Positions 4,669-32,000 are shown, numbered from the stretch's first letter. The stretch is 32,000 nt of DNA from Candidatus Electrothrix sp. GW3-4 (GCF_037902255.1 NZ_CP147990.1:1320001-1352000), one strand, 5' to 3'. Numbers and translations: made by a program. Notes: a model not told the origin generated them from the letters alone.

Positions 4669-4681
4669 AAATGATCGCTGC

Positions 4682-9541: not shown

Positions 9542-9661
9542 GTCGTTTTGGACCACTGTTTGTGGCCGTTATGCTAGTGCTCTGTAAAATCTAAATTTTA
9601 GGGTAGCGTATTTAAAATTAATGTAGCATGTTGTCCGAAAAAAAAATTGAAAGAGGATTTC

Positions 9662-10797: not shown

Positions 10798-10813
10798 CAG
10801 AGCACTAGTCTCA

Positions 10814-11104: not shown

Positions 11105-11119
11105 GCTTTCCTTGTCCCG

Positions 11120-11274: not shown

Positions 11275-11303
11275 GGTAGGTTTTGGGGTGAAAGGTGTGG
11301 GAA

Positions 11304-11654: not shown

Positions 11655-11720
11655 ATTTATACCTTTTTTGTTTTATGGTTTAACGTGCGTCCCCGATTTA
11701 CCGAAAAATGAAAGAAAGAT

Positions 11721-12863: not shown

Positions 12864-12884
12864 ATTTGTTCCTTATATTAGTCT

Positions 12885-12902
12885 CAAGTAGGTCTGTTTG
12901 AA
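12885..12902. repeat. 17-18 bp direct repeat aagtaggtctgtttgaa (copy 2)
   Basis: Identical to 11305-11322. Lies 22 bp upstream of the 380-aa ORF start. Confidence 0.8.
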
Positions 12903-12970
12903 TACAACGAAAACGGATATTCTCTCGACCCAATGAAAAATCTTCACGAAACGCACGCATGTTACCTCAA

Positions 12971-13108
12971 TCATTCCATGCAGGCAAGATGGGTCAGTTC
13001 GTCTTGGTCGTAGAGTTGCAGGAGTTTATTCAAGGTGCCCTGTTGGACAACGTGGCGGATGTATTCGTTCTTGGGCAGGGACAGTTTTATGTGGTAATTT
13101 TTGGGCAT
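12971..13108 (-). CDS. Small-ORF copy B (45 aa), possible ribbon-helix-helix-like regulator
   Basis: MPKNYHIKLSLPKNEYIRHVVQQGTLNKLLQLYDQDELTHLACME. It is below the ORF-track length cutoff and was found through DNA similarity of ~12975-13190 to 11128-11322. The fold guess is weak. Confidence 0.4.
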   Translation of the reverse strand: MPKNYHIKLSLPKNEYIRHVVQQGTLNKLLQLYDQDELTHLACME

Positions 13109-13267
13109 GCTTCATATGCTGCCGTTAACAGTTTTTCATGGTAGTCTTTCGAGGCGTGGTGTATGAAGGGAGTGTGGGATAGTAGGTTTGGAGTATAGGG
13201 CAATATAACATATGGTGGATTCGCAATAGCCCTTTTTGTCTGATTTTTTTTCATTTTACGAGTTCAT

Positions 13268-14182
13268 ATGGAATTTTCCCCATCAAATGTAGCATTTAAT
13301 CGACATGAATCTTTTTCTCTCCGTTTTGGATGGTTGACGAAGGGGTTTAAGGCATTTCAAGATAATCCTGACTTTTTTTCTGCTCCAGATGCCGTAGTGC
13401 AACTTGGTGTTGGTAAAAACATGGTAAATTCAATTCGTCACTGGCTGAGAGCCGCCCAATTGATTGAAATAAATAATGATGAAAAAAGGGTGACCCGTAT
13501 CGGTGAGGCTATCTTTGATAGAAAAAGAGGATATGATCCATATTTAGAAGATGAAGCCACTATCTGGCTCATACATTGGCTAGTTGCGACTAACCCGATT
13601 CATGCGACATCTTGGTACTGGTTTTTTAATCGTTTCCATAAGACTGAGTTTACTAGCCAAGAAGTGTATACGGCCTTGCTTGATTTTTCGCAAGAAAATA
13701 TCACCGGAAAGTACTCCGAGAATTCAATAAAAAATGACTGTGCCGTTTTACTGAGAACCTATGTCCAATCAAGAGGAGATACAAAAATACCAGCAGAAGA
13801 AGCTCTTGATTCACCTCTGTCATTGCTGAAGCTTATCACCTATACCAAAGCGACTAAAACATACCAATCTTGTCTAAAACGACGCGACGACCTACCTATA
13901 GGTATTGTAGGGTATGCTTTGGCTGATTTATTTAGGCAGCGAAAGATAAAAGAAATTTCTATGGAAGATCTTGTTTACAGTAGTGACGGACAAGTTGCCC
14001 CCGGCCCAATTTTTCGGTTGTCGGAAAACGATCTGATCGCTAAACTTGAAGATCTCGTTTATTATCTTCCTAACATTTTTAAAACATCCGAGAGCGCAGG
14101 TATTCATCAACTTTACCTCTTACAGGATATTGACCCGTTGATCTATATTAAAGAGCATTACAAGACCCAACAACAGGGATAA
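13268..14182 (+). CDS. sspB: DUF4007-family protein, SspB-like (DNA phosphorothioation nickase component)
   Basis: The N-terminus is FNRHESFSLRFGWLTKGF...VGKNMVNSIRHWL. It is the first gene of a tightly packed 4-gene operon with a P-loop ATPase, a PAPS-reductase-like gene and a DUF262/DUF1524 gene. Confidence 0.7.
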   Translation: MEFSPSNVAFNRHESFSLRFGWLTKGFKAFQDNPDFFSAPDAVVQLGVGKNMVNSIRHWLRAAQLIEINNDEKRVTRIGEAIFDRKRGYDPYLEDEATIWLIHWLVATNPIHATSWYWFFNRFHKTEFTSQEVYTALLDFSQENITGKYSENSIKNDCAVLLRTYVQSRGDTKIPAEEALDSPLSLLKLITYTKATKTYQSCLKRRDDLPIGIVGYALADLFRQRKIKEISMEDLVYSSDGQVAPGPIFRLSENDLIAKLEDLVYYLPNIFKTSESAGIHQLYLLQDIDPLIYIKEHYKTQQQG

Positions 14183-14187
14183 CCGGC

Positions 14188-17100
14188 ATGAGTTTACAAG
14201 ATTGTATTGTTATTGATACCGTATACACCCGCTCAATCAATCTTGAACGGGATATTGACTCTGCTGCTATTGTCGAGGCGTATATCCCAACCACCCGTTC
14301 ACTCTATACCCTTCGCAAACTAGCTAATACCTTTAACAAAAATAATACTCCCCGTTCTTGGGCGTTGATTGGCCCTTATGGCTCTGGTAAATCCTCTTTT
14401 GCTGTTTACTTATCTCACTTGCTCTATGGAACCAATGACAATAATACAGAAAGAGTTTTTTCCTCGCTTGCTAACCATAGTCAGGGACTCATTGAAAAAT
14501 TTATTAATTATACTGACGGAACAAAGGGGTTCGTATCTATACTGCTCACAGGGTCTCCAGATCCCTTAATACCTCGTTTCTTATTAAGTTTACAAAAATC
14601 GGTATATTCTTTTTGGCGGGATATTCCTGGGCCGCCACCGACAATAATAGCAAAAATTGATGAGGCACTCCAAGAGGGTACCGTTAATACACATCAAGTT
14701 ATTGGACTTGTTGAAATGCTTCGCCAAGCGGTGGAAAAGGCCGGTGGAGCCGGAGTTCTTATCGTTTTTGATGAACTTGGTAAATTTCTCGAATACGAAG
14801 CACGCCATTATGAGGCTAATGACATTTATCTTCTGCAATCCTTGGCAGAACTAGCGGTTACTGGACATAAAACCAATATCTACGTTTTCACTCTTATGCA
14901 TCAAGGGTTCGAACAGTATGCTAGAGGGCTTGGTGAAGATCTACGTAATGAATGGAGTAAGATTCAAGGGCGTTTTGAAAATATACCGTTTCTTGAATCT
15001 ACTGAGCAGACATTACATATTATAAGCAGAGCCTTCAAAAATAGGCTTACAGAAAGAGATAAAGACAGAATTGCGACTAACTGCAAAAAAATAGCTGCTG
15101 TTTTAGATAAAGAAAAAGCTCTGCCCGGTGGTATGCATAGAAATCTTGCTGCTGATCTTTTCGCACAATGCTATCCGTTACACCCCGTTTCAGTGTTACT
15201 TTTGCCTATTCTCTGTCAGAAGATGGCTCAGAATGAACGAACTCTTTTTAGTTATCTTGGTTCTAAAGAGCAGCATGGTTTACGCTATAGCCTTTCTGCA
15301 ATTGACAAGATCGGCGAATGGGTTATGCCTTGGGAAATTTTTGATTATTTTATCCTTAATCAGCCTTCAGTTCTTACCGATCCTATTACTCATCGGCGCT
15401 GGGCGGAAGTTATCACCGCCATTGAACGTCTTGGGGATGTTCCAACGAACTATTTTGAATTACTAAAGACCATCGGTTTGCTGAACATTATTGGAGCCCA
15501 AGGGGGATTCAAGGCAAGTAAAAAGATTATTAGTCTTTGTGCTACGAGCAAAAGAGCTGCTACTATGGCTGCAAATGGCCTGATTGAATCTGCTGTTCTC
15601 CAATTTCGAAAATTCAGTAATGAGTATCGGGTTTGGCAGGGGAGTGATTTTGATTTAGATGCAGCTATCAAAGACGAACTTGATCAGATGGGGTATTTTG
15701 AACTTTGTGATGAGCTGAATAAGAGAAAGCCCCTTCAACCCATTGTCGCTCGTCGTCATACTATAGAGACTGGTTCGCTTCGTTATTTTTCTCCATCTTT
15801 TGTTGACGTAAATACATATAGAAAAAAATCAAATCAAGCAGGTCAGGAGCGAATTGTTTTTTGCTTAGTTGAATCCGCTGAAGAAATAAATAATGCCTAT
15901 GACAAAGTAGTTCCATATTTTTCTGCACAGGATGTGGTGGGTATCTATCGAAATGGTGTCCAACTCAGGGAGGCTGTGGCCGAAGTAATTGCTCTGCACC
16001 GGGTTGAAAATAAGTGTCAGGAGGTAAATAGTGATCCTGTTGCCCAGCGAGAATTTAAGGATCGCCTCGCAGTGGCTGAACAACTAGAGGACGAGTTGCT
16101 CTCCGCCTTGCTGGAAACTCCACAAGAAGCAGAGTGGTTCTGGAGACAAGAAAAGTTAACTGTCACTGGAAAACGGGAACATCAGCAAAAACTTTCTACG
16201 ATTCTGGATGCAGTATACCGCGACACCCCTTATATTCATAATGAGCTGATCAATCGAGAAAAGCCGTCTGCTCAAGCTAATGCCGCTCGTAATAAACTGG
16301 TAATGGCCATGATTAACCATTTGGACGAGCCGGAATTAGGAATAAAAAAATTTCCCCCGGAGAAAGCTATTTATCTTGCTTTTTTGTATTCCACAGGGCT
16401 GCATCAGCAGAGAAAAGACGGATGTTGGGAGTTGAAACCGCCAAGTCGGAATAATAAATGCAATCTTTATCCAGTTTGGCAGGAGATTGATGAATTTTTG
16501 GAAAGCACAAAAAGTACTCCACGTTCTTTTGATGAATTAACTATCCGATTACGAGTGCCTCCTTTTGGAATTAAAGCTGGTCTTCTACCGTTACTTTACC
16601 TCACAGTTTTTCTTGCCAAGCAGCATGAACTGGCATTGTACGAAAATAGTATTTACACGCCCTATATCACCACTCAACACATAGAGCGTTTTATGAAAAA
16701 GCCAAGTTGTTTTACTGTTCAGCTTCTTCAAATTGCAGGTATTCGTGCTTCTTTGTTTCAAGAGTATGCAAAAGTTCTTTTTGGCCGTAATAATAAACAG
16801 GAGGCTACGCTCCATACGATTGCCAAGCCTCTTGCGAAATTTGTTGCGAACCTTGATGAGTATGCAAAACGAACAAATCGTATATCTCCAGCTGGCAAAA
16901 AAGTCAGAAAAGCCATTCAGCTGGCAAAGTCACCAACGGACTTGCTTTTTGTCAAGCTACCAAATGCTTGTGGTTTTCCTGCTGTTGATAATGATGATAT
17001 CAAAGAAAGTCAAATTGAAGGGTTTGCCGCCTCTTTAGTTGAAGCGATCCGTGAACTACGAGATTGCCACAAAAAGATGCTTAACGAGTTGCAAGAATTG

Positions 17101-17682
17101 ATAGCTCATTCTCTTTTACCAGACATGAAGAGAAAGCTTGAACTGTCGGAATTAAGGAGCAAACTGTGTGCAACATATGAGGATCTTGATCAATATACCA
17201 TTGATCATAAAGAGTTGATTCCCTTTATTGAACATCTATCAGAATCTAAAGCAAAAGATGAACTGTGGTTTAATCGGTTGCTGCTCTTTCTGGCGGGGCG
17301 ATCCTCTGAAAAGTGGAGGGATATTGATCGTGATAACGCTTTGAAAAAACTTACTGACTTGTCAAGGCGGCTGCTAGATCTTAACTTTTTACAAAGCTCA
17401 TATAAACGGCAAAAGATAAAAATAGAAGGTGATTTTGATGTGATCTGGCTGAGAACAATGCGACATGGTACAAATTCTGATTGTGATGAACTTGTAAGGA
17501 TTGATGAGACGGCAAAGGAATATATTAGTAAAAATAAAAAACAGTTGAAAAGCTTATTACAAGAACTGGGCGATGAAAGTACCCGTCTTGCCATGCTTGC
17601 GGAACTATTGGATGATACGCTAGTTGAGAGGAAGAAAAATAAAATAAAGAAACGGCAAAAGCCGAAAAGGGTCAATGAGTAA
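14188..17682 (+). CDS. sspC: Large P-loop ATPase (1164 aa), SspC-like
   Basis: Walker A is LIGPYGSGKSSF and Walker B is VLIVFDELGKFLE. It has a 5-bp gap to sspB and an 8-bp overlap with the next gene. Confidence 0.65.
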   Translation: MSLQDCIVIDTVYTRSINLERDIDSAAIVEAYIPTTRSLYTLRKLANTFNKNNTPRSWALIGPYGSGKSSFAVYLSHLLYGTNDNNTERVFSSLANHSQGLIEKFINYTDGTKGFVSILLTGSPDPLIPRFLLSLQKSVYSFWRDIPGPPPTIIAKIDEALQEGTVNTHQVIGLVEMLRQAVEKAGGAGVLIVFDELGKFLEYEARHYEANDIYLLQSLAELAVTGHKTNIYVFTLMHQGFEQYARGLGEDLRNEWSKIQGRFENIPFLESTEQTLHIISRAFKNRLTERDKDRIATNCKKIAAVLDKEKALPGGMHRNLAADLFAQCYPLHPVSVLLLPILCQKMAQNERTLFSYLGSKEQHGLRYSLSAIDKIGEWVMPWEIFDYFILNQPSVLTDPITHRRWAEVITAIERLGDVPTNYFELLKTIGLLNIIGAQGGFKASKKIISLCATSKRAATMAANGLIESAVLQFRKFSNEYRVWQGSDFDLDAAIKDELDQMGYFELCDELNKRKPLQPIVARRHTIETGSLRYFSPSFVDVNTYRKKSNQAGQERIVFCLVESAEEINNAYDKVVPYFSAQDVVGIYRNGVQLREAVAEVIALHRVENKCQEVNSDPVAQREFKDRLAVAEQLEDELLSALLETPQEAEWFWRQEKLTVTGKREHQQKLSTILDAVYRDTPYIHNELINREKPSAQANAARNKLVMAMINHLDEPELGIKKFPPEKAIYLAFLYSTGLHQQRKDGCWELKPPSRNNKCNLYPVWQEIDEFLESTKSTPRSFDELTIRLRVPPFGIKAGLLPLLYLTVFLAKQHELALYENSIYTPYITTQHIERFMKKPSCFTVQLLQIAGIRASLFQEYAKVLFGRNNKQEATLHTIAKPLAKFVANLDEYAKRTNRISPAGKKVRKAIQLAKSPTDLLFVKLPNACGFPAVDNDDIKESQIEGFAASLVEAIRELRDCHKKMLNELQELIAHSLLPDMKRKLELSELRSKLCATYEDLDQYTIDHKELIPFIEHLSESKAKDELWFNRLLLFLAGRSSEKWRDIDRDNALKKLTDLSRRLLDLNFLQSSYKRQKIKIEGDFDVIWLRTMRHGTNSDCDELVRIDETAKEYISKNKKQLKSLLQELGDESTRLAMLAELLDDTLVERKKNKIKKRQKPKRVNE

Positions 17683-18463
17683 GGATAAAATGCGTCATGT
17701 TTGTGGTATTTCCGGCGGCAAAGACAGTGCCGCATTAGCTATTTATTTGAAAGAAAAAGGTGCGATACCTGATGTAGAGTATTTTTTTTCTGATACCGGT
17801 TGTGAGTTACCAGAAACGTATGACTTCATTGACCGTCTTGAAGCCTATCTTGGAAAAAAGATAACTCGGATAGGAGGAGAGGCACCTTTTAAACATCACC
17901 TTTTTATGATGGGAAACATGTTGCCATCTCCAAAGCAACGTTGGTGTACCGTTAAAATGAAAATAGAACCCTTTGAAAAATTTGTAGGAACAGATAACGT
18001 GACGAGTTATATAGCCATCCGCGCCGATGAACATCGTGAAGGTTATATTTCCACTAAATCTAATATTACGCCTGCTTTTCCTTTTATCCACGATGATATT
18101 GTCCGAAAGGATGTCTTTCAAATTTTAGAAGATACTGTTGGTATACCTGAATATTATAAATGGCGTAGTCGTTCAGGCTGTTATTTTTGTTTTTTTCAAC
18201 GACATGAGGAGTGGATTGGCCTTTTTGACAATCATCCTGATTTGTTTCAAAAAGCGGTGGAGATGGAAAAAATTGATCCTGATACCGGAGAAGGATTTTC
18301 TTGGATTCAAGGGATGAGTTTGAAACAGCTTTTAGAGCGTAGGGAAGAAATTATTGAGCTGGCATCGAAGCGAAGAAAGGGAGAGGATAACAGAAGTTGG
18401 CAGGAAATTTTATTGGAAGAAGGGGACTCTGATGATTCAGGGTGCTTGATTTGTAGCCTGTAA
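17675..18463 (+). CDS. sspD: PAPS-reductase/DndC-like ATP pyrophosphatase, SspD-like
   Basis: The PP-loop is VCGISGGKDSAAL. Cys-rich motifs are SGCYFCFF and the C-terminal GCLICSL. Confidence 0.8.
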   Translation: MSKDKMRHVCGISGGKDSAALAIYLKEKGAIPDVEYFFSDTGCELPETYDFIDRLEAYLGKKITRIGGEAPFKHHLFMMGNMLPSPKQRWCTVKMKIEPFEKFVGTDNVTSYIAIRADEHREGYISTKSNITPAFPFIHDDIVRKDVFQILEDTVGIPEYYKWRSRSGCYFCFFQRHEEWIGLFDNHPDLFQKAVEMEKIDPDTGEGFSWIQGMSLKQLLERREEIIELASKRRKGEDNRSWQEILLEEGDSDDSGCLICSL

Positions 18464-18487
18464 TAATCTGTGAGCGGAGTTTTAAAA

Positions 18488-20614
18488 ATGCCTATTGAAA
18501 ATATTGACAGAGAACTCAAGAAGATATACGAGCTAAATACCGCAAAAAAATTCGTTTTACCAAATTTTCAAAGAAGCTTTGTTTGGAAATCAAAAGCACA
18601 AAAGGAGCTTATAGCGTCTTTTATAGTGCATTTGCCAATTGGAAGCCTATTAGTTCTTGAAGGCGAACAGGGGGATTTTTCCGCAAGAGCATTATGCTTT
18701 CCCGATAAAATTCAACCAGCTGAAGATTGTAGCTATGTACTTGATGGTCAGCAAAGATTATCAACGCTTCGGACAGTTTTTTATGATCTTTTTCAAGAGA
18801 GCGATGATTGGTTAGCAACTTGGAATAAATTATATTCAAGTTTGCGAGCTAGATGGTTTATTCGGGTAAAACCTGATAAAAGTGAACTTGATCCTTTCGG
18901 TTTCAGAAAATTACATTTTGAAACACTTATAAAGTACGATCAGGGGCAATTGATTGATTTTATAGAGGAAAGAAAAATATTTAAAACTAGAATTGATGCT
19001 TTCTATCATCCAGGCTACAAGCCTGTAGATAATGACGGAAATAAACTTACCGGAAATAAAGCAAGGTTACATATAGCAAGAAAGTTTGCTGAATTAAATA
19101 TAGTACCACTTTACGAACTTCATAAGGGACAAAACGGTATTCACCATAAAACACTTGATCAAATAGCTTCGAAACGCCTTGATGATTTGAAGGCGGAAGT
19201 AAATGATGCCGATGATTATATTGAGAAATATAATGCTCTATTAGGAGAAGTCGAAGATGACATCGAAGAACTTGTCAAAACTGACGACACTAATGCCATT
19301 GATCAAGCATGGATAGAGCTTAAGGTTAGGTGGGTAAGGAGCGTTTCGGAATACTTAGAAGGGATTACGTCAAGAAAAATACCAATAATTTTACTGCCAA
19401 GCTCTGAAATCAGCCGGGCTGTAGCAATTTTTGAGGCTATCAATAAAGGGGGGACTCCGCTTAGTGTTTATGATTTAGTCGTTGCAAAGGCAGCAAAAAA
19501 TAGTGAAATTGACAATTTATCAAACAGGATATGCAAGAATCTTCGTGATAAAATTCATATTCCAGACCATCTCAATAGTAAGTTTACTTCATCATCATTA
19601 AGCAATAAATGGTCTTGTGAAAATATGCAAGTTATAGACAATAATGAACCTGCTAGATTTGTTCAGGATTGGTATTTGAATATTTTGTCACTTATTGTGT
19701 ATTTGAAAGTGAAAGATCACTCTGAAAAAATAAACGATAACATATATCGTGTTGAATATATAAAAAGAGAAAGAATTCTAGAATTATCTTCTGAAGAGAT
19801 CAATCAGTATACGGACCGTGCGGTGGCTTCTTTGGTAAAAGCTTTTGCATTTGTCCACTTTCGATGCGGTGTAATGAAAGTTAACTCTGTACCTTACAGG
19901 TTAATGGTGTTGGTAATCGCTTATTTTTTAGATGATGAAAACAACTGGGACAATAAAAAAGTAATTGACCAGCTAGAATATTGGTACTGGTGTTCGTTAT
20001 TTGGAGGCGGGTATCATTATCGTCAAAATGAGACATGCATTGAAGATATTGAAAATCTATCTATATTTTTTGAGAAAGGTGAGAATAAATTTCAAAAAAG
20101 AGCAGCTGATGTTCTCGGTATTGTGGGGTATGCAAATAAAGATATGCTCCTAAGAAAAAATGAAGAAATTGAAGGGGCAAGTGTACGAGAAGGGATTTTG
20201 CAATACATACTGAGTAAAAGTCCTGTTGATTTCCTTAATGACGATCAGAAAATAACCAGTTGGGATGTGACGAATGGAAAATTTGATGTTGAAGTGCATC
20301 ATTTGATCCCACTTGCAGGTGCAACAACAATAGATACTTCCTCATCTAAAATTAGAAAAGATAAATCTCATATTTTAAACAGTGCATTAAATCTTACTTA
20401 TATTTCCAAAGATGCCAATAGAAAAATTAGAGACAAAGGGGCAGTTGAATATTTTAACTATATTGACTCTATGAGTACGATTGGCCATTGTGTACCTAGT
20501 GTAGATAAATTAAAAAATGATTACGGAGAAGATTATTATGAAAGTTTCTTAGCTGATCGATTTGAATTTATTTATAGAGAACTCCGGCAAGAGTTAGATG
20601 ATTTGATAAATTAG
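18488..20614 (+). CDS. sspE: DUF262 (N-terminal) + DUF1524/HNH-like (C-terminal) protein, SspE-like PT-dependent restriction component
   Basis: DUF262 motifs are LPNFQRSFVW and LDGQQRLSTL. The C-terminal part has VEVHHLIPL...LNLTYISKDANRKI. The start is moved from GTG 18470 to ATG 18488, which follows ggag. Confidence 0.75.
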   Translation: MPIENIDRELKKIYELNTAKKFVLPNFQRSFVWKSKAQKELIASFIVHLPIGSLLVLEGEQGDFSARALCFPDKIQPAEDCSYVLDGQQRLSTLRTVFYDLFQESDDWLATWNKLYSSLRARWFIRVKPDKSELDPFGFRKLHFETLIKYDQGQLIDFIEERKIFKTRIDAFYHPGYKPVDNDGNKLTGNKARLHIARKFAELNIVPLYELHKGQNGIHHKTLDQIASKRLDDLKAEVNDADDYIEKYNALLGEVEDDIEELVKTDDTNAIDQAWIELKVRWVRSVSEYLEGITSRKIPIILLPSSEISRAVAIFEAINKGGTPLSVYDLVVAKAAKNSEIDNLSNRICKNLRDKIHIPDHLNSKFTSSSLSNKWSCENMQVIDNNEPARFVQDWYLNILSLIVYLKVKDHSEKINDNIYRVEYIKRERILELSSEEINQYTDRAVASLVKAFAFVHFRCGVMKVNSVPYRLMVLVIAYFLDDENNWDNKKVIDQLEYWYWCSLFGGGYHYRQNETCIEDIENLSIFFEKGENKFQKRAADVLGIVGYANKDMLLRKNEEIEGASVREGILQYILSKSPVDFLNDDQKITSWDVTNGKFDVEVHHLIPLAGATTIDTSSSKIRKDKSHILNSALNLTYISKDANRKIRDKGAVEYFNYIDSMSTIGHCVPSVDKLKNDYGEDYYESFLADRFEFIYRELRQELDDLIN

Positions 20615-20755
20615 GTTTACGAACGTACCTCTGATCCACATCTGCTGCACGAGAGACTGTTCCAGAAAGCGAGCAGCATCCACATCCAAAAGATAGGATT
20701 CTATCTTGTCAATGCTCTCGGAAATATGGATCAAATAGAGCCTGTCGTCCTTCAT
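20594..20755 (-). pseudogene. hepT: Truncated HepT (DUF86/HEPN) toxin gene, N-terminal ~40 codons only
   Basis: MKDDRLYLIHISESIDKIESYL...FLEQSLVQQ then runs into unrelated low-GC sequence. The Rx4H HEPN motif is absent. The ATGA start overlaps the mntA stop. Confidence 0.7.
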
Positions 20756-21042
20756 AACTGTATCGCTTCCTGCATAATCTTCTCTTTCAGATACCAATGC
20801 AGGCCGCGTTCCGTCACGATATCCACCTTTCGACCCAGCAGTTCTTGCAGCCTGATCAGCGCACCGCCGAGATCCAGCATGCTGCGCCCCGGCTCCAGCT
20901 CGACAAGCAGGTCAATATCACTCTGCGGAGTTTCTTCACCTCGGATGACAGAACCGAATATTCGTAGCCGGACAATCCCGTGCTGTCGGGCAATGGCAAG
21001 GATGTTCTTTTTTTGTCGCTGTATTCTTTCGAGTTCTTTCAT
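20752..21042 (-). CDS. mntA: MntA-type minimal nucleotidyltransferase antitoxin
   Basis: LRIFGSVIRGEETPQSDIDLLVE carries the GS...DxD nucleotidyltransferase motif. 96 aa, paired with the hepT remnant. Confidence 0.85.
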   Translation of the reverse strand: MKELERIQRQKKNILAIARQHGIVRLRIFGSVIRGEETPQSDIDLLVELEPGRSMLDLGGALIRLQELLGRKVDIVTERGLHWYLKEKIMQEAIQL

Positions 21043-24446: not shown

Positions 24447-26266
24447 AACTGTTCCTCCTCTTTTTCCTCAGGCACTGATGTTCTGCCGACCGCAGCATTG
24501 GCAGCCTTGATTGACGCATCCAGGTCAAAGACCCGGATATCACTCTGTTCAGGGATCAGGGCCTCGTAGAGATGGGGAAAATTATCCAGCGTGTTGAGGA
24601 TGGGGTGGGGCGCAGTATGGCCCAAACCGCATTTGGTGGTCTTTTCCATGACCGTGCTCAGTTGGCGCATGGCAGTCAGATCTTCCCGTGTGCCCTGCCC
24701 CTGCCTGATGCGGCGCAGGGTATTACGCAGTATCCAGGTCCCTGCCCGGCAGGAAGAACAGGAACCGCAGGACTCGTCAGTGAAGAACTCCATAAAATTA
24801 TCAATAATGGCCAGCAGATCATGCTGTTTGCCGATGATAATGATGGCACCGGCTGAGGGGCAGCCCTCAAAGCTGATTGGGGTGTCCTTGGCTTCAGCAT
24901 TGAGGCACTGACCCGAAGGGCCACCTACCTGCACGGCCTGTGGATCTCTGGCCCCGGCCATCTCCAGCAACGCACCAATGGTAATGCCGAACTCCACTTC
25001 GTAGATACCGGGCCGGTCGCAGTCTCCAGAGATGGACAGCACCTTGGTACCTGTGGATTCCTCGGTCCCCATATGGCTGAACCATGCAGCCCCCTTATCG
25101 ATGATCTGGGCCGCAGAGGCAAGGGTCTCTACATTATCAATGACCGTGGGCATTGCCCGGTAACCGCTTTGGGCCGGGAAGGGAGGGCGGTTTCTTGGCT
25201 CACCCCGTTTGCCCTCAGCAGATTCCAGCAGGGCGGATTCTTCGCCGCAGACATAGGAGCCTGCTCCCAGCTGGACCCGGATATCAAAATCAAAACCTGC
25301 CTTGCCTGCAATCGCTTTGCCCAGCAGGTTATCGGCCCGCATCTGCTCCAGCACCTGTTCCAGATATTCCCTGAGATAGGTGTATTCTCCGCGCAGATAC
25401 AGGGAACCGGTTGTGGCCCCGACCGCATAGGCACAGAGAGCCATGCCTTCAAAGAGGAGTTCCGCCCGTTCGGTGAGCAGTACCCGATCCTTAAAGGTGC
25501 CGGGCTCGCCTTCATCGGCATTGGCCACCACGCAGCGTTCCGGCCCTTGGGCCTTGGCGCAGAAATCCCATTTCATGCCCGTGGGAAAACCCGCTCCGCC
25601 GCGTCCCCGTAACTTGGAGGCATTGATCTCCTCTAACACCTCTTCCTTGGACAGGGTGACGCATTTTCGCAGGGCAACGCCAACCTCGTAGGGACCTAAA
25701 CAGACCGGACCAGCCTTTTGGATATTATTGCGGACCATCGAGCCGATTGACGGGAGGCTGTTGTTGCCGTCCCCGTATGCTCTTTCTTTGCTCGCCATGT
25801 CCTGGACTGAGACGCCTTCTTGCATGTCTTTGATCAAGGCTCGGGCCTTTTCCGGGGTCAGGCTGGTAAAGACGACATTGTTGATCAGGGCAGCGACCTC
25901 TTGATCGCCCATGCCGATATCTGCTGTAACAAAGAGGCCGATGCGGCCATCTTCGGTCACTGAATCAATAGGACAGCCTGCGGCCTCGCTGAAAGCGGTA
26001 GCAACCGCCTCATAGCCCTGCATGATGGCGACCGGTCCCTTATTAAGGTAGATGGTGTATTCCCCGCGTGGTGTCTCGGAAAGGAAATGGTAAAAGGAAA
26101 CAGTTTGGTGGATATCAGCCCAGGACAGACCCACTTCCTGGGCCAGCTGCCGGGCCGCATCATCGGTTATGCAACGCTCCTGGGCCTGCACATCAATGAG
26201 TATGTCGAGCAGCCGGTTCGGGTCGTTATCATACTTTGCAGCAAGAGCGGCAATGTGTTCGGACAT
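24443..26266 (-). CDS. hoxF: Diaphorase NAD(H)/FMN-binding subunit (NuoE-like N-terminus fused to NuoF-like core)
   Basis: GRGGAGFPTGMKW, the C-terminal ESCGSCSSCR 4Fe-4S motif, and a NuoE-like N-terminal ~150 aa with only two Cys. Confidence 0.9.
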   Translation of the reverse strand: MSEHIAALAAKYDNDPNRLLDILIDVQAQERCITDDAARQLAQEVGLSWADIHQTVSFYHFLSETPRGEYTIYLNKGPVAIMQGYEAVATAFSEAAGCPIDSVTEDGRIGLFVTADIGMGDQEVAALINNVVFTSLTPEKARALIKDMQEGVSVQDMASKERAYGDGNNSLPSIGSMVRNNIQKAGPVCLGPYEVGVALRKCVTLSKEEVLEEINASKLRGRGGAGFPTGMKWDFCAKAQGPERCVVANADEGEPGTFKDRVLLTERAELLFEGMALCAYAVGATTGSLYLRGEYTYLREYLEQVLEQMRADNLLGKAIAGKAGFDFDIRVQLGAGSYVCGEESALLESAEGKRGEPRNRPPFPAQSGYRAMPTVIDNVETLASAAQIIDKGAAWFSHMGTEESTGTKVLSISGDCDRPGIYEVEFGITIGALLEMAGARDPQAVQVGGPSGQCLNAEAKDTPISFEGCPSAGAIIIIGKQHDLLAIIDNFMEFFTDESCGSCSSCRAGTWILRNTLRRIRQGQGTREDLTAMRQLSTVMEKTTKCGLGHTAPHPILNTLDNFPHLYEALIPEQSDIRVFDLDASIKAANAAVGRTSVPEEKEEEQL

Positions 26267-26512
26267 AGGTTTCTCCCCCTTTTGAAGAATGGCTTAAAAA
26301 GCTCTTGTATGGTACCACGCTTCTTTTTTTTTGCAGTAAAAAATGATAATTCCGTAAAAAGTCAGAAAAGAGGACAGCGCTAACGGCAACTCAATATGTT
26401 GCGAGGTGAATTTGGCCAAAAGGGGACTTCTTATGAAACCAGCAAAAGAAAAGGGCATGAGATCTCGCCCTGTTCCGTGTTGAACAGGTAGGGGCTCCAA
26501 CTGTTTATCTCG

Positions 26513-26722
26513 TCAGGGCCTGTGGGCGCTGTATCCTGCCTTGGTAATGGCCTGGATAACGGCGTCCGGTTCACCGCCCTGGACAGAGATCATGCCGTCT
26601 TCCAGGTTGACCGTGGCTGCTGTTACGCCGGGGACAGACTGGGCTGCTTCGGTTACAGCGGCCTCGCAATGTTTACAGCTCATACCTTTGACAATGAGGG
26701 TGTAGAAAGATGGGTCAGTCAT
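26513..26722 (-). CDS. Heavy-metal-associated (HMA) domain metallochaperone, CopZ-like
   Basis: 69 aa with GMSCKHCEAAV (MxCxxC). Confidence 0.85.
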   Translation of the reverse strand: MTDPSFYTLIVKGMSCKHCEAAVTEAAQSVPGVTAATVNLEDGMISVQGGEPDAVIQAITKAGYSAHRP

Positions 26723-26783
26723 GGGATTCTCCTGGCTTGAGGTTATAGGTTTCGTTATGAAATACCCGGGCAGGTGCCCTGAG

Positions 26784-27614
26784 TTACTTCATCCATTCAA
26801 GGGCATTGATTGCCGCGTCACGAACTTCGAGACTTGTATCTTCCTGAAGGACCTTTTGCAGAAGAGGAATGGTTGTTTCATCTTCTAATTTCGTCAAGGC
26901 CCATACCGCTTGCATCCTCACCCTGCTGCTCTGATGGGTTAACATCGTGGCGAGTTGTTCTGTTACCTTTTTATCCCCAATCTCCCCTAGGGCCCAAACA
27001 GCTGCTTCAACAAGGATGGTGTTTGAGGTTGATTGGATGGCCTTGAGTAAGACAGGGATCCCCTGGGTGCTTCTCAGCATACCAAGGGCGTTTGCCGCAT
27101 CTTTACGGATAATCTTGTTTTCAGAGCTGTCAGCAACCGTCTCAAGGGCCAGAGGGATTGCCAGTCTGGATTTCATACGACCGAGGGTATAGATGGCACT
27201 GCCCCGTAGGTTTGCTGAGTTTTGTCGGTCTTTAAATGCCGTTTCTAATTCCAAAACAGCAGGTTCTCCGATCAAAGACAGGGCCTTGCTACTGGCATTG
27301 CGCACCTCTATTTCTTCATCATCCAGCAGGGCGATTAAAGCTGGCACGGCATCTTTGCCGTAAAGCGACAGGGTGATGGCGCTGAATTTACGTTCTTTGG
27401 CATTCTCTGACCCAAGTTGTGGGATCAGTTTTGAAATTTCTTTAATGCTGGCAATTTCCATTTGAGAAACAGCCTGTTTATTGGTGATCTCCAGTTTTTT
27501 ACTATTATAGGTGAGGGTCACGACAATACTTGCAGAGGCAATGACGACCGAAGAGAAAAAGGTCGAAACTCCTTTTAAAATACCGCTGTGTGAGGAACTA
27601 TCATTATTTTCCAT
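26784..27614 (-). CDS. HEAT-repeat (PBS-lyase-type) protein with an N-terminal transmembrane anchor
   Basis: The hydrophobic segment is VSTFFSSVVIASASIVVTLTY. Repeated motifs include EVRNASSKALSLIG, IRKDAANALGML, RVRMQAVWALTKL and EVRDAAINALEWM. Confidence 0.8.
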   Translation of the reverse strand: MENNDSSSHSGILKGVSTFFSSVVIASASIVVTLTYNSKKLEITNKQAVSQMEIASIKEISKLIPQLGSENAKERKFSAITLSLYGKDAVPALIALLDDEEIEVRNASSKALSLIGEPAVLELETAFKDRQNSANLRGSAIYTLGRMKSRLAIPLALETVADSSENKIIRKDAANALGMLRSTQGIPVLLKAIQSTSNTILVEAAVWALGEIGDKKVTEQLATMLTHQSSRVRMQAVWALTKLEDETTIPLLQKVLQEDTSLEVRDAAINALEWMK

Positions 27615-27738
27615 AATGTAACCCTACATTTTGCAAGCTTGATGATACATCTCTTCTCCTTGTCTGTACTGGCACCCCATTTGGCTGGAGGAAGAGGGGG
27701 CAGTCATGGGGTTCTCCAGGGTTGATTTTGCGACTCCG

Positions 27739-27766
27739 GTAAGGGAACGGCACGCCGTGCCCTTAC
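27739..27766. terminator. REP-like hairpin gtaagggaacggcacgccgtgcccttac immediately after the stop of the DUF1566 gene
   Basis: A member of the same palindrome family as 187-214. It abuts the TAA at 27767-27769. Confidence 0.6.
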
Positions 27767-28702
27767 TTACTGCGCCCTGCATAGTCTGCAAAAGCCTCCG
27801 GGCACGGTGCCGGAAGACCAATAGATCCGGCCCTGGGCATAATCGACAAACCAATAGCCAGTCGGGGCGCGGCGGGCATTGGTAAAGATAAACGGCTGTT
27901 CCTTGGAGAAACAGGGATGCAGGTGCATTCCCTTTGCATTAGCTGTCGGTTCCAGCAGGGACATGGCCTCTTCCGGGGAGGGCATGCGCCAATCATGAAA
28001 ACCAGCAAAGCCTGCGCTGTTCAGTTCCTCAATTCTCGCTTTCATGGTACGGATTGAACAGAGATCAAGCCCGGCTTGCTGCCAAAGCAGGCCGGTACGC
28101 TCGTCAAAGACCGTGTGTTCGTCCCCGCTATCGACTAAAATATTGGCAAAGTTGCCCTGCAGATTGAGCCGAACATCGTAGAAATTCCCGTCTCTGATAA
28201 GCAACTCGACCTGTTCTTCTGTCAGGGCACGCGGTTCCGAGGGCAGGAGGATCTTTTCACCGGTGAAGCCGCTGCTTTTCTGAGACGGGAGCGGTTCTCC
28301 TATATCCTCGGCTTCGGGCTGGGGCGCAATCGTCAGCCGGAGATACGGGCTGTCCTCCCGTTCCACGACCTCATCCAGCAGCCACTCCTTGAGGGTATCG
28401 TCAACAGGGAAATTCTCTCGGGTGGATGCCTTGGCTCCCTGCCGGTGAATGCAATTGAGCACGATTTCCTTGGGTGCCGTGATTTCCGCCAGAATATGCA
28501 CATACCTGACCCCGCGCTCCATGAGGCAGAGCTTCGGTTCATCCCCCCAGTTATCAATAAAGAAATAACAGGTTCGTTCCTTGGTGCTGATCAGCTCCTC
28601 CCGCAGACCTTTGGCGGAAAAGGTGCAGAAGGCGAGATCCGGGGTCATATCCCAATCAATGGTTACCACCTGTGTATCGCTCAGCTTTACTCTGTTTAAC
28701 AT
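27767..28702 (-). CDS. Protein with an unknown N-terminal half and a C-terminal DUF1566 (Lcl C-terminal-like) domain
   Basis: GFAGFHDWRMPSPEEAMSLLEP...YWFVDYAQGRIYW matches the DUF1566 signature (xxDWRLPTxxEL). It lies 50 bp downstream of the Roc-COR gene. Confidence 0.7.
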   Translation of the reverse strand: MLNRVKLSDTQVVTIDWDMTPDLAFCTFSAKGLREELISTKERTCYFFIDNWGDEPKLCLMERGVRYVHILAEITAPKEIVLNCIHRQGAKASTRENFPVDDTLKEWLLDEVVEREDSPYLRLTIAPQPEAEDIGEPLPSQKSSGFTGEKILLPSEPRALTEEQVELLIRDGNFYDVRLNLQGNFANILVDSGDEHTVFDERTGLLWQQAGLDLCSIRTMKARIEELNSAGFAGFHDWRMPSPEEAMSLLEPTANAKGMHLHPCFSKEQPFIFTNARRAPTGYWFVDYAQGRIYWSSGTVPGGFCRLCRAQ

Positions 28703-28752
28703 GAGCTTTTCTCCCTATCGGGTACGGAGGTTCGAGGAAATTCCGAGTGCTT

Positions 28753-31323
28753 TCATTTCAACAAGGCAAGAATGCCCTTGATGGTAGTTGTCACTGGCGC
28801 AGCCATTCCTGCGCAGGCTTTTGCGGCTTCGATCAATCCTTCTGCACTCAATTCATACCATTTCTTTCGCGGGGACTCCTTGGTTACCTCTTTGACAAGG
28901 CTATCCAGATCTTGAGCTGCCTCTTTTCTTTTATCTTCTGGCAATTGAGGGAGCATTTGTTCAACTTGCTGACAGAGGCGTTCCAATTCAGCTTTTAAGG
29001 CTGGCTCGGCATCAGACTGGGCAACGGTGTTAAAACTGTCTTTAATTTCATTTGAACCTATAATTACATTAGAGCCATCACCAATGTTACCAACGGTGTA
29101 GCTGTTGCCGTTCTTATTTGTTTCACCAGACATAATATCGCCCTCCATCTTATCAATATTGTATATTATTTTTCCATCATTTCCCCGCCGATACGTTGAC
29201 CTCGCCTCTCTGGGCATAATCTGGAGGATTTTATGAAGATCAAAGGTGCCATCTTCATGATCATATTCCGTTCGGCCCTTTTCCTCCATTGCCAGCAGTT
29301 GGCGAAAATTTGCTTGGATTGGTTGATCAGAGCGACGAAAGGACAGCGGCGGATCACCGATTCTGCTGGCTTCCGGCACAATGACGAACTCCTTAAAGCG
29401 GAGTTCCGGCATCCGTTCCAGGATTCTTCCCAGGTCATCATAAAGGATTTTGAAATAGTCGTTGGCCTTGGGGCCGCGTAGCCAGAGGGCCAGCTTGCGG
29501 TCGTGGTAATCCACCTGGACCAGGGCCTCTGCGCTTTCATCCTTGCGCTGGAGGACAACCCCGTTCTGCCAGACCAGCTCCTCCTTGATCTCATCATGGC
29601 GACCCACAATGAAGTTGGGCATGATGTGGCGGGGCAGGAAGCCGGTAAAGTCGAACTCAAAGGCAAGACTGTCCTGTTTATCAAAACCGTGCTTGGGTTG
29701 GTCAGAATCCAGCAGGGCCGGGATGATGATCATGTCCGGTTCATGGCGGCAGGGGAAACAGAGCTTGAACTGCTCCATCGCCTGAATGATGATGGCCGCC
29801 TTTTCCTCGGGATAGCTGAGTACATTGCCCAAGTTGTCCTCAACCTTAGCGGCACTGAGGATGCGGACAATCTCGTCCCTGTCCACCCTGCCCTGCTTTT
29901 CCCTGGCCTCTTTGGAATAGAGCAGGGTATAGACGCCATAGGTCAGCCAGCGCGGGTTGAGGATGTAGCTGTCCAGAGCAGCCAGTTTGGGGAAATGGAC
30001 AATAACGCCGAGCTTGTCAAAGAGGTCCAGGAGCCAAGCCTGATTGAGGTCGCCCTGCTCGGCAAGCCCTTTGTCAGCGCAGAGATCAAGCCAGTCGGTT
30101 TTGGGGAGAAAGGATTCCGTGCCGGAACGGTCGGACAGCTCGTCCAGCACGGCGAGATGGGCCTTGCCAAAGCGGACGGTATGCACGCCGAGTTCCGCGA
30201 CCTCCTTACTCAGGTCTTTTTGGAATCGCTGAAACTCCAAGGCATAGTTGTTTTGGTATTGAGTACAGGAGAGCGGGTAAAAATCGAGCACGTTCTTATG
30301 CTTTTCCTTGAGCCGGGCCATGTCCAGGTTGACCGCACAGAGATCGGCCTTGTTGCCGACCAGCATAACCGGGGCCTTATTGCCGAAAGCCCGCACATGT
30401 TCCAGCCAGTATTCGGCCTGCTCATTGGCGTTGATCTCGGTACGTCCGTCCAGGAGGAGGACATAGAGGCAACGGGAGCGGAGAAAGAACTGGTGGGTGG
30501 CGTGGGCCACGACCTGGCCGCTGAAGTCCCAGAAATGGGCCGTGATTTCAGTGTCCGGCACCTGCCAGGTGGAGATGTCTATGCCCGGTGTCATTTTTTC
30601 TTTGCCCTCATCTACCTCCAGGCCGTTCAGAGCGCGGATGAGGGAGGTCTTGCCTGCCTCGCCATAGCCGAGAAAGATGACGCGGACGCGGTTGAGGGCA
30701 CCGGCGGCATTGCCAAGGCTTTTCAGGTAGGCGTTGATGTGTGCGGGTTCCTGGGCAAGGATTTCTTCCGGGAGATGGGCTACTGCTTCGAGAAATTCTT
30801 TGTCAGTAGGTATTCCCTCAATGCGTCCTTGGAACCAGTCTGCCCAGATGTCAAAGCCGTTGCCGTAGTCGCGGAGAACTTGGACGAATTCTTTAGCTCG
30901 CTGATGCCAGTTTTTTTTGGGGGAAGCATTGAGCGGTTGATAGAGATAGTCGAAGACAGTCTTACCAGTGTTAATATATGTTTTAAGAAAGGTTAATTCT
31001 CTTACGTTGTCGAATGGGTGTGTGTCATCGGTAGCTGGAAAAAGCATTGGAAAGGAAGCAATTAAAATGCTTAAGAACTCTCTATCGCTTTTATTTAACG
31101 ATACAATCAATTCAGAAGAAGATAAGTTTTTCTTGTATCCTCTAACAATTCCAACACTGCTGGGTTCAAAATGTATAGCAAGTTTGAGTTTACTAAATAA
31201 ATACTCTTGGGGTGTTAGCTGCTGTATGTCTGCTAATGAATACGCAGCAACACGAGTTGTATAGGCATGTAACCATCCCTTGGGCAACTGCTCCAGTTCT
31301 TTTTCTATTTCTTCTCTGTTCAT
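28753..31323 (-). CDS. Roc-COR family GTPase (856 aa) with an unknown N-terminal module and a Gly/Asn-rich plus helical C-terminal tail
   Basis: G1 is FLGYGEAGKTSL, G3 is WDFSGQ and G4 is VGNKADL. The COR-like sequence is ILNPRWLTYGVYTLL. No LRR, WD40 or kinase domain is evident. Confidence 0.85.
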   Translation of the reverse strand: MNREEIEKELEQLPKGWLHAYTTRVAAYSLADIQQLTPQEYLFSKLKLAIHFEPSSVGIVRGYKKNLSSSELIVSLNKSDREFLSILIASFPMLFPATDDTHPFDNVRELTFLKTYINTGKTVFDYLYQPLNASPKKNWHQRAKEFVQVLRDYGNGFDIWADWFQGRIEGIPTDKEFLEAVAHLPEEILAQEPAHINAYLKSLGNAAGALNRVRVIFLGYGEAGKTSLIRALNGLEVDEGKEKMTPGIDISTWQVPDTEITAHFWDFSGQVVAHATHQFFLRSRCLYVLLLDGRTEINANEQAEYWLEHVRAFGNKAPVMLVGNKADLCAVNLDMARLKEKHKNVLDFYPLSCTQYQNNYALEFQRFQKDLSKEVAELGVHTVRFGKAHLAVLDELSDRSGTESFLPKTDWLDLCADKGLAEQGDLNQAWLLDLFDKLGVIVHFPKLAALDSYILNPRWLTYGVYTLLYSKEAREKQGRVDRDEIVRILSAAKVEDNLGNVLSYPEEKAAIIIQAMEQFKLCFPCRHEPDMIIIPALLDSDQPKHGFDKQDSLAFEFDFTGFLPRHIMPNFIVGRHDEIKEELVWQNGVVLQRKDESAEALVQVDYHDRKLALWLRGPKANDYFKILYDDLGRILERMPELRFKEFVIVPEASRIGDPPLSFRRSDQPIQANFRQLLAMEEKGRTEYDHEDGTFDLHKILQIMPREARSTYRRGNDGKIIYNIDKMEGDIMSGETNKNGNSYTVGNIGDGSNVIIGSNEIKDSFNTVAQSDAEPALKAELERLCQQVEQMLPQLPEDKRKEAAQDLDSLVKEVTKESPRKKWYELSAEGLIEAAKACAGMAAPVTTTIKGILALLK

Positions 31324-31345
31324 ACGGCTTCCTTCAAACCAGCCT

Positions 31346-31373
31346 GTAGGCTCACGACGTGTCGTGGCCCTAC
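31346..31373. repeat. Degenerate REP-like palindrome gtaggctcacgacgtgtcgtggccctac
   Basis: It has the same cctgtagg...ccctacg frame as 181-217 and lies 23 bp upstream of the Roc-COR start. Confidence 0.65.
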
Positions 31374-31437
31374 GATGGCAGATAATACGTGACAGACTTT
31401 TTGATGTTATCTACCCCAACGGGGTTATATATATCAG

Positions 31438-31500
31438 CCCGGGGTAACACCCTGGGCACCGGGAACAGAATCTCTCTCGTACTCGGGGTGTTACCCCGAG
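31438..31500. repeat. Pair of oppositely oriented GGGGT-AAC/GTT-ACCCC hairpins
   Basis: cccggggtaacaccctggg (31438-31456) and ctcggggtgttaccccgag (31482-31500), the same family as 228-246 and 358-374. Confidence 0.75.
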
Positions 31501-31750
31501 TTGATGAAATATACGCCTTTCAGGCGATGAATTGCCCGTACAGGTACATTGCGTAATCCAAGCCAACCGCGACCAAACACTCGCCCGCTGCCGGTAAGTC
31601 TATTTTTTATGTAAAAAGATATATTACTTAGATCTCCAGGTATATTTCTTCTACTTCGAGATCAAAAAAATACACCTGGAAATACTTTGATTATACCTTT
31701 TTATATATTTTTTCTTTGAGAAGGTAGATGGAGACTATCTTCTTGTCCCC

Positions 31751-32000
31751 TCACTCATCAGATAATCGGCAATAGTCTATCACCTCATCCCCGAATTGCA
31801 CCAAATCATCCAGTTTCTTGGTGATCACCTCAGCAACAATATCGATATCGATTTTCTCATACTGATGCACGGCAAAATTACGAAAATGGGCCATCCTGCC
31901 AAGGGATTCCGCCAGTTCTCGATCTATAACCCTATGTTCACCCAGCCGTTGAAAACTGTCTCGACTGCTTGTCGGAATGCCCAGCTTGAGCTGCCGGACG
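31751..32000 (-). CDS. HEPN-domain (DUF86/HepT-like) protein, C-terminal 82 aa; the 5' part lies outside the window
   Basis: Manual minus-strand translation gives ...LAESLGRMAHFRNFAVHQYEKIDIDIVAEVITKKLDDLVQFGDEVIDYCRLSDE*. RNFAVH is the Rx4H HEPN motif. The entry is absent from the track because the ORF has no start in the window. Confidence 0.75.
   Translation of the reverse strand, partial: VRQLKLGIPTSSRDSFQRLGEHRVIDRELAESLGRMAHFRNFAVHQYEKIDIDIVAEVITKKLDDLVQFGDEVIDYCRLSDE

Follow-up and report, generated by a model that had tools for sequence, protein, structure and literature searches.

A stand-alone Roco GTPase of a cable bacterium with a fast-evolving helical N-terminus and an abundant, unnamed C-terminal module

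The Roc-COR protein encoded by gene A

This work concerns a 32,000-nucleotide stretch of the genome of the cable bacterium Candidatus Electrothrix sp. GW3-4 (GCF_037902255.1 NZ_CP147990.1:1320001-1352000; hereafter the window, in whose coordinates positions are given unless another locus is named), and in it two minus-strand genes: gene A (28753-31323), an open reading frame (ORF) of 856 amino acids (aa) encoding a stand-alone Roco (Roc-COR) protein, and gene B (27767-28702), a 311-aa ORF of the DVU0772 family with an Lcl_C/DUF1566 domain, which begins 50 bp downstream of gene A. An earlier note on this DNA had taken the two for an operon. Gene A is here best read as a mobile, independent stand-alone accessory gene in a variable, defence-gene-bearing slot. 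It is a variant, lacking leucine-rich repeats (LRR), of the known, computationally predicted prokaryotic Roco/AP-GTPase conflict proteins, and its real interest is an abundant, unnamed C-terminal module in what appears to be the effector slot of the family.

The product of gene A is 100% identical to a 'COR domain-containing protein' of GW3-4 and, as the earlier note had proposed, joins Ras-like G1, G3 and G4 motifs to a COR region. Pfam places a Roc domain at residues 214-327 (E 4.6e-22, above the curated cut-off), COR-A at 389-538 (E 2.3e-24; 86.4 bits against a cut-off of 35.3) and COR-B at 552-699 (E 1.3e-21; 77.4 bits against 27), and it returned no LRR, WD40 or kinase match for the protein, which agrees with the absence of these modules claimed before. 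The Roc G domain (aa 211-380; 30184-30693, minus strand) keeps its motifs intact, namely G1 (GYGEAGKTS, 219-227), G3 (DFSGQ, 266-270) and G4 (NKAD, 324-327), and residues G219, G221, G224, K225, S227, T245, D266, G269, Q270 and N324 are invariant across 76 homologues. COR-A and COR-B follow (aa 381-702; 29218-30183, minus strand), recognised by both Pfam and Foldseek and known as the dimerisation device of Roco proteins. Searched with phmmer against the PDB, gene A matched Methanosarcina barkeri Roco2 (4wnr, 3e-59) and the C. tepidum protein CtRoco (8r4b/6hlu/3dpu, about 1e-52), with LRRK2 more distant (about 1e-14). An AlphaFold2 model built from 76 homologues (mean predicted local distance difference test, pLDDT, 83.9) superposes on the C. 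tepidum RocCOR crystal structure 3dpu_A with a Foldseek E of 6e-28 and a target-normalised template modelling score (TM-score) of 0.81, and on the COR-only structure 3dpt with a TM-score of 0.82-0.85. By formal sequence and structure comparison, gene A is a true Roco protein; the COR assignment, whose failure the earlier note had named as a refutation, thus stands. GTP binding and hydrolysis coupled to COR-mediated dimerisation are predicted from the conservation of the motifs. The earlier likening of gene A to the signal transduction ATPases with numerous domains (STAND) holds as an analogy but not as a class: Pfam found no NACHT, NB-ARC or similar domain, the NTPase matches were confined to the Ras superfamily (Roc, Ras and Arf), and Roc is a Ras-like GTPase rather than a STAND ATPase.

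Conservation is distributed very unevenly along the protein. Among 13 cable-bacterial orthologues of gene A, mean pairwise identity is 23% over the N-terminal segment (residues 1-100), 61% over a pre-Roc module (101-210), 90% over Roc (211-380), 85% over COR-A (381-545), 77% over COR-B (546-702), 47% over a linker (703-756) and 84% over a terminal bundle (757-856). The N-terminal helical domain occupies the position that the LRR has in classical bacterial Roco proteins, and it divides into a hypervariable helical segment (aa 1-100; 31024-31323, minus strand), a candidate sensor or specificity region, and the conserved helical pre-Roc module (aa 101-210; 30694-31023, minus strand), which stands in for the LRR and the LRR-Roc linker of CtRoco. 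The whole domain is helical in the AlphaFold2 model, with low confidence at residues 60-99 and a pLDDT of about 90 over aa 101-210. The pre-Roc module is kept in 118 of 120 homologues, and gene A aligns from residue 156 on with the pre-Roc linker of CtRoco (chain residues 397-420 onward). The variable segment is flanked by conserved helices, and the family consensus starts ..LP.EW..AFAAR.A...LP.L..; at aa ~45-100 many homologues carry low-complexity inserts rich in Ala, Tyr, Asp and Ser, whose length differs even between close relatives (for example P0006, P0025, P0096 and P0108). Some of these inserts form heptad-like repeats (AARAADA...), and gene A itself is unique and non-repetitive there. 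The N-terminal ~210 aa (209 aa scanned) gave no Pfam family even at E<=10, only noise matches, and the tail (aa ~703-856) gave none at the same threshold; the earlier statement that both ends fall outside known families is upheld, and both tail peptides quoted with it are present.

Gene B and the variable slot

The DUF1566 gene described 50 bp downstream of gene A was confirmed as an ORF with Lcl_C (=DUF1566) at residues 197-297 (Pfam, E 1.6e-15). Its N-terminal half, called unknown before, in fact belongs to NCBIfam NF045682, the DVU0772 family (E 8.6e-24). Full-length homologues of gene B number in the hundreds; the top 120 are 58-88% identical, nearly all measure 310-318 aa, and they belong to Desulfobulbaceae and relatives, a profile that fits a vertically inherited, constrained gene. 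By eye, its N-terminus holds no obvious signal peptide. What lies upstream of it changes from genome to genome: a CbbQ-type AAA gene with a VWA gene in Desulfocapsa sulfexigens, a ParDE pair in Desulfogranum marinum, a GmrSD restriction enzyme in E. aestuarii, an outer-membrane beta-barrel gene in opposite orientation in Electrothrix Rat3, and a phosphatase in E. aarhusensis, so that genes other than Roc-COR stand there in five of the seven genomes inspected. A block of gene B, HMA (heavy-metal-associated) and Hox hydrogenase genes is conserved within Electrothrix, and gene B is not beside HMA/Hox in Desulfocapsa or Desulfogranum. Gene B is thus a conserved resident of its chromosomal position, a neighbour and not a partner of gene A.

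A dedicated operon of two genes, Roc-COR and DUF1566, whose products act jointly in signalling or conflict is, on this evidence, very improbable. The two genes do lie on the same strand 50 bp apart, with no terminator-like site between them and a hairpin after the second, and the same arrangement recurs in one other, uncultured Electrothrix genome (L014). However, co-conservation, on which the pairing had been staked beforehand, was not found: among the 60 Roc-COR loci with at least 1.5 kb of downstream DNA (out of 80 loci), a gene B profile matched at one only, and that one is L014, the same syntenic site in a close relative. Roc-COR relatives 52-79% identical to gene A have other neighbours, as the E. 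aestuarii orthologue (75% identical) is followed at an unrelated locus by a TPR protein, the strain YB6 orthologue (79%) likewise by a hypothetical protein, and a paralogue in GW3-4 itself (52%) by an HU-like protein; gene B, for its part, stays 58-88% identical across Desulfobulbales below unrelated upstream genes. The hairpin (27739-27766, minus strand) lies directly after the gene B stop and is stable (-23.2 kcal/mol, z -1.7), and palindromes of its kind recur; the earlier note had called it a hairpin of the repetitive extragenic palindromic (REP) type. It was also tried as an intrinsic terminator, with no match and with the T-run absent. Like ~26 bp upstream of gene B, it stays with gene B where Roc-COR is absent (for the hairpin, L006, L007 and L096) and therefore gives no evidence for a two-gene operon. 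Genes A and B may well be co-transcribed here, by accident of insertion. A spurious Roc-COR/DUF1566 system is thereby removed, and the case illustrates how a gene that is conserved next to a variable slot can pass for an operon partner.

The slot itself is delimited by comparison with E. aestuarii. In blastn of the window against the E. aestuarii locus L006, the anchors are 27701-28728 (gene B plus 26 bp) on one side and 31446-31528 and 31751-31999 on the HepT side, at 84-87% identity, and the interior 28729-31445 is unrelated between the two genomes. This variable cassette (28729-31445, without assigned strand) holds Roc-COR here and in L014, whereas in E. aestuarii these anchors enclose a GmrSD gene; strain Rat3 has neither Roc-COR nor GmrSD at the syntenic site. 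The upstream anchor is the 3' end of a HepT (HEPN/DUF86) toxin gene (31751-32000, minus strand), to which a syntenic MntA-HepT pair corresponds in L006. The earlier remark that HEPN genes flank the region is right on this side; beyond the Hox operon, however, an NTP_transf_2 gene was found but no HEPN match.

Upstream of gene A lies a ~185-bp segment (31556-31740, minus strand) that accompanies Roc-COR orthologues to other genomic sites. It is 83-85% identical to sequence directly upstream of the orthologues in L008 (7753-7937; E. aestuarii) and L013 (a Desulfobulbaceae metagenome-assembled genome, MAG), has a second copy in L008 at 5685-5857 and a weaker match (68%) upstream of the L018 orthologue, and is scattered nearby in extra copies and short palindromic pieces. 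It probably serves gene A as its own promoter or 5' region. L008 also encodes, no more than 8 kb from the E. aestuarii gene A orthologue, a classical LRR-Roc-COR protein (1-1876, minus strand) and a Schlafen/AlbA_2 protein (4109-5449, minus strand), and several Y2-transposase genes lie downstream of that orthologue.

The C-terminal module, its family and the surrounding genes

The C-terminal module of gene A consists of a linker and a helical bundle. The linker (aa 703-756; 29056-29217, minus strand) carries a Gly/Asn-rich, beta-prone motif (...NGNSYTVGNIGDGSNVIIGSN...), recognised from the alignment and the AlphaFold2 model, with the family consensus ..I.IG..N.I.GSVVAA..I.NSFN; the Gly/Asn-rich stretch is disordered in the model (pLDDT <50 at 717-756). 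It leads into a five-helix bundle (aa 757-856; 28756-29055, minus strand; pLDDT 85-96) with a moderately hydrophobic final helix, and linker and bundle together make up a mobile unit. A profile built from 33 tails and searched against 1.84 billion proteins, clustered at 50% identity, matched 2,574 cluster representatives, 1,573 of them at E<=1e-10, and in nearly all of the best 150 matches the tail lies at or near the C-terminus. In length the proteins bearing it run from about 120 aa, where nothing but the module is present, up to over 1,000 aa. In 108 such proteins the tail itself is covered by neither a Pfam nor an NCBIfam model; their other domains in Pfam include Roc/COR (some with LRR), EAD11, pentapeptide repeats, receiver domains, TCAD9, AbiTii and PT-HINT, among others; the two largest classes of N-terminal region among them (about 370 aa) match no family. 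The PADLOC model PDC-M14B was matched by 19 of the 33 tails (best E about 1e-8). The tails of P0313 and P0339 (~135-222) gave weak matches (E 4e-5 and 3e-6) to positions 283-369 of the PADLOC PD-T4-6 model, and the PD-T4-6 protein may hold a related helical segment.

Within the Roc-COR family, the end of the protein is exchanged, as the earlier note had supposed when it spoke of swappable ends. The helical tail is present in 63 of 120 homologues of gene A; a TIR domain follows COR-B in four others (P0045, P0050, P0052 and P0103), whose Roc-COR cores are 53-55% identical to gene A; and two predicted transmembrane helices stand at the tail position in the cable-bacterial paralogues P0017, P0024, P0027, P0034 and P0043. 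The C-terminal position of the family would therefore seem, from this pattern of domains, to be an effector slot. The same tail also occurs away from Roc-COR. In the L098 operon the genes encode an EAD11-ABC ATPase, a 465-aa protein and an EAD11-tail protein, and one adaptor is found both on the NTPase and on the tail protein, a layout by which Kaur et al. recognise effectors (PMC8195603). Free-standing tail genes of ~120-145 aa occur in cable bacteria (P0257, P0263, P0282, P0288 and P0289; L094, 6001-6372). By eye these closely resemble the tails of the P0025/P0028 clade of Roc-COR paralogues, and they begin at a 'MGHTY' that lies inside those tails; the one in E. aestuarii adjoins a catalase-peroxidase gene and not a Roc-COR gene. 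At L093 (4112-6381) a free-standing tail gene (P0247) comes directly after the gene of a 619-aa pentapeptide-repeat protein, in a neighbourhood that also encodes an NB-ARC-WD40 STAND protein and further WD40 proteins.

The distribution of the family was surveyed at 80 loci from species-representative genomes. There are 2-4 Roc-COR loci per genome in 11 species genomes, including four in one Burkholderiaceae MAG, three in Anammoxibacter and at least two in GW3-4. In Candidatus Anammoxibacter two Roc-COR genes are arranged in tandem on the same strand (L036, 3108-6032 and 7314-10340), with further loci at L037 and L038. The hosts are often filamentous or multicellular (cable bacteria, Beggiatoa/Albibeggiatoa, Thiomargarita, Thiothrix, Leucothrix and Rhodomicrobium), and the family is also found in Methylococcales, Gallionella and anammox bacteria. 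No conserved partner was found among the ORFs within 5 kb of the 80 loci, the largest neighbour cluster spanning six loci and consisting partly of Roc-COR fragments and tandem copies; the nearest flanking ORFs across 75 loci are heterogeneous (PIN 5/123, TPR 4/123, otherwise scattered).

The window around gene A is rich in conflict-type genes, with CHAT-TPR, GmrSD_N and HepT represented. A 1342-aa CHAT-protease and TPR protein (592-4620, minus strand) and a 1123-aa UvrD-type helicase with a ~470-aa N-terminal extension without Pfam match (5208-8579, minus strand) are typical of conflict systems in multicellular bacteria. A low-GC island at ~9000-21000 (GC 35-46% against 52-66% outside) carries an IS630-type transposase (HTH_32 + DDE_3; 9647-10797), DUF4007 (13268-14182), a 1164-aa protein without Pfam match (14188-17682), PAPS_reduct (17675-18463) and GmrSD_N (18470-20614), and an NTP_transf_2 (MntA-like) gene lies at about 20752-21042. 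The order DUF4007, 1164-aa protein, PAPS_reduct and GmrSD_N presumably resembles that of the SspBCD-SspE phosphorothioate defence system.

Repeats are frequent as well. Palindromes of the GGCACGGCGTGCC type number 13 in the window (<=2 mismatches) against 0.7 expected, among them 192-209, 398-415, 578-590 and 27749-27761; a second palindromic element, upstream of gene A (inverted repeat 31433-31505), has one copy at 220-270, which matches 31412-31463, and another on the downstream side of the Roc-COR orthologue in E. aestuarii. These palindromes look like repeats of Electrothrix genomes akin to REP elements or miniature inverted-repeat transposable elements, and Rfam on 26200-32000 gave only a sub-threshold Acido-Lenti-1 match over a palindromic repeat (22.4 bits against a gathering score of 37). 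A HEAT-repeat gene (26784-27614, minus strand) is bracketed by a 43-nt direct repeat (26698-26740 and 27683-27725, 81% identical), each copy of which holds a ribosome-binding site and the start of the HMA gene. In E. aestuarii and strain Rat3 HMA comes directly after gene B and the HEAT gene is absent; because of this and of the layout of the repeat, the HEAT gene looks like a second, independent insertion that duplicated the 5' end of HMA.

Interpretation and comparison with known systems

Based on these findings, we lean towards reading gene A as a self-contained, single-gene Roco switch of the prokaryotic AP-GTPase(Roc)-COR conflict class, similar in logic to nucleotide-binding leucine-rich-repeat (NLR) proteins, with the tail as its output or effector. 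First, the fast-evolving helical N-terminal domain that takes the place of the LRR would sense a trigger or keep the protein autoinhibited. The trigger would then shift the nucleotide state of the intact Roc domain, and COR-A and COR-B would change the dimer/monomer or a higher-order state; in C. tepidum Roco, a GTP-driven transition from dimer to monomer has been shown biochemically (PMC5714945, PMC11052575). This oligomeric change could free the C-terminal module, the disordered Gly/Asn-rich segment plus the five-helix bundle, as the output. Since the tail is non-enzymatic and trades places with TIR and with transmembrane segments, a self-assembling or membrane-perturbing effector is the most economical guess; such a tail would most likely self-associate and/or attack the membrane, leading to growth arrest or death of the infected cell. 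We infer, then, a defence role for gene A and an effector role for its tail. A bolder version of the latter, which we put forward tentatively and regard as rather doubtful, is that the tail represents a new large family of non-enzymatic cell-suicide effectors deployed by NTP-driven immune switches, by Roc-COR in cis and by EAD11-ABC ATPases in trans, and acting as a mirror image of Bell/HeLo-like proteins in which Gly/Asn assembly would free the terminal hydrophobic helix to damage the membrane.

Several observations weigh against a conflict role or would serve a different reading, in which gene A is a GTPase with a regulatory but non-immune task (for instance a cell-cell, stress or cytoskeletal/membrane switch of filamentous bacteria), the tail a localisation or oligomerisation domain and the N-terminus a relaxed low-complexity spacer. 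Bacterial Roco proteins have no established physiological role, in the searchable literature no experiment was found that ties any of them to phage defence, the family is enriched in filamentous taxa, and the immediate neighbours of Roc-COR loci include many housekeeping genes. No transmembrane segment is predicted in the tail (maximum Kyte-Doolittle 19-residue mean 1.46), and the tail model gave no significant Foldseek match to a known pore-former or toxin in the PDB, the best being the CC domain of Rx (E 0.31, TM-score 0.25, not significant). It is fused to response-regulator receiver and pentapeptide-repeat domains as well, which fits a general oligomerisation or localisation domain equally. 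The PDC-M14B matches cover only the C-terminus of the model, PDC-M14 is itself a candidate system only, and a literature search for PDC-M14 found no paper. Variability is the one property that suggests a sensor at the N-terminus, and the inserts there are low-complexity, Ala-rich sequence. Against the non-immune reading, however, stand the presence or absence of the gene and its replacement by GmrSD at the syntenic site, the multiple divergent paralogues per genome, the TIR at the tail position of close homologues, the fusion of the tail to EAD11 in an EAD11-NTPase operon, to TCAD9 and to AbiTii, the matches of tails to PDC-M14B at all, and a window with CHAT-TPR, GmrSD_N and HepT conflict genes; taken together, we hold a non-immune role to be possible but improbable.

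Less probable still, and in our view quite unlikely, is an immune switch whose tail is not the effector but an adaptor, recruiting or templating free-standing tail copies or other tail-bearing proteins by homotypic, amyloid-like Gly/Asn assembly. The free-standing copies of motif and bundle in cable bacteria (e.g. P0263, P0282, P0288 and P0289) would suit such a role, as would the disordered, beta-prone Gly/Asn motif, and there is a precedent in the Bab/Agp system, where BASS amyloid motifs couple the sensor to a five-helix Bell-type executioner (10.1101/2024.11.07.622273). But those copies are not adjacent to Roc-COR genes, the BASS layout differs, with the motif at the N-terminus of the sensor and the C-terminus of the executioner and common to adjacent genes, and in gene A motif and bundle already stand in cis, so that a partner is unneeded.

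The reading of gene A as a single-gene conflict switch matters for two reasons. Structural work on the Parkinson's-disease kinase LRRK2 uses bacterial Roco proteins as its standard models, and an immune role for these proteins is so far a computational prediction only; a compact LRR-less clade with a delimited hypervariable region, and with an output that alternates between TIR, transmembrane helices and a helical module, makes that prediction directly testable. If the tail were indeed a suicide effector, gene A would offer the first tractable case in which a bacterial GTPase of the LRRK2 type has a defined immune output. The tail, moreover, merits definition as a family, since it is abundant, lies outside Pfam and NCBIfam, and is found at the effector position in no fewer than two kinds of NTPase system.

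Among known systems, the class to which gene A is assigned was described by Kaur, Iyer, Burroughs and Aravind, who predicted that prokaryotic AP-GTPase-COR proteins are conflict systems whose N-terminus evolves fast, whose C-terminal domain comes in at least 24 alternatives and of which a genome carries multiple paralogues (eLife 2021; PMC8195603); the earlier note's statement that no function had been described for such proteins was accordingly too strong. Like them, gene A unites in one polypeptide a GTPase-COR core, a fast-changing N-terminus and a C-terminal effector position whose domain can be swapped, and its family shares both the multiple paralogues per genome and the bias to multicellular and filamentous bacteria. 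It differs from the class in its N-terminus, which is all-helical without an LRR match where the class has leucine-rich repeats, and in its C-terminal module, which matched no named domain of Pfam or NCBIfam. With human LRRK2, LRRK1 and DAPK1 gene A shares a homologous Roc-COR supradomain (E about 1e-14; Foldseek E about 1e-17), but it is bacterial, much smaller, and has no kinase, ankyrin, armadillo, LRR or WD40. CtRoco and M. barkeri Roco2 have the same Roc-COR-A-COR-B core, intact GTPase motifs and a helical linker before Roc (Foldseek TM-score 0.81-0.82). Unlike these two, gene A has in place of the LRR a ~210-aa helical domain whose first half is hypervariable, and ends in the Gly/Asn linker and five-helix bundle of a separate mobile family; dimer/monomer cycling is a feature of CtRoco, and gene A is known here from its sequence and predicted structure.

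The tail can be compared with candidate defence proteins and known effectors. Its family matches three PDC-M14B models over their C-terminal ~90-130 positions; only positions ~134-262 of 261-275 are covered, and by the tail, so that the homology is limited to this module. In the EAD11-coupled NTPase operons the same tail is fused to EAD11, which gene A lacks, the Roc-COR in cis replacing the separate ATPase. EACC1, a small pore-former with an autoinhibitory beta-sheet N-terminal part that is cleaved by an adjacent protease (10.1101/2025.11.14.688446), was considered as the identity of the tail and rejected, the tail being all-helical after a disordered segment, with a protease neither fused nor adjacent. 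The closest functional analogy, and an analogy only, may be the Bell/Babybell bundle and BASS motif of the Bab/Agp antiphage system: like the tail of gene A, these combine a small five-helix bundle with one hydrophobic terminal helix and a short Gly/Asn-rich, beta-prone motif, and they work with NLR-like sensors in multicellular bacteria. The order is nevertheless mirrored, as in gene A the motif precedes the bundle, the hydrophobic helix comes last and the motif is not common to adjacent genes; comparison of Bell and BASS with the tail gave no sequence or significant fold similarity, and the tail does not classify as Bell.

At the level of the whole protein, gene A follows the same tripartite logic as Avs and bNACHT, the STAND/NLR-like antiviral ATPases, in that a variable sensor, an NTPase switch and a swappable effector are united in one gene. 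The switch differs, however, being a Ras-like TRAFAC GTPase with a COR dimeriser in gene A rather than a STAND AAA+-type ATPase, and the oligomerisation to be expected differs with it, namely a dimer/monomer cycle in gene A as against the ring formation of Avs and bNACHT.

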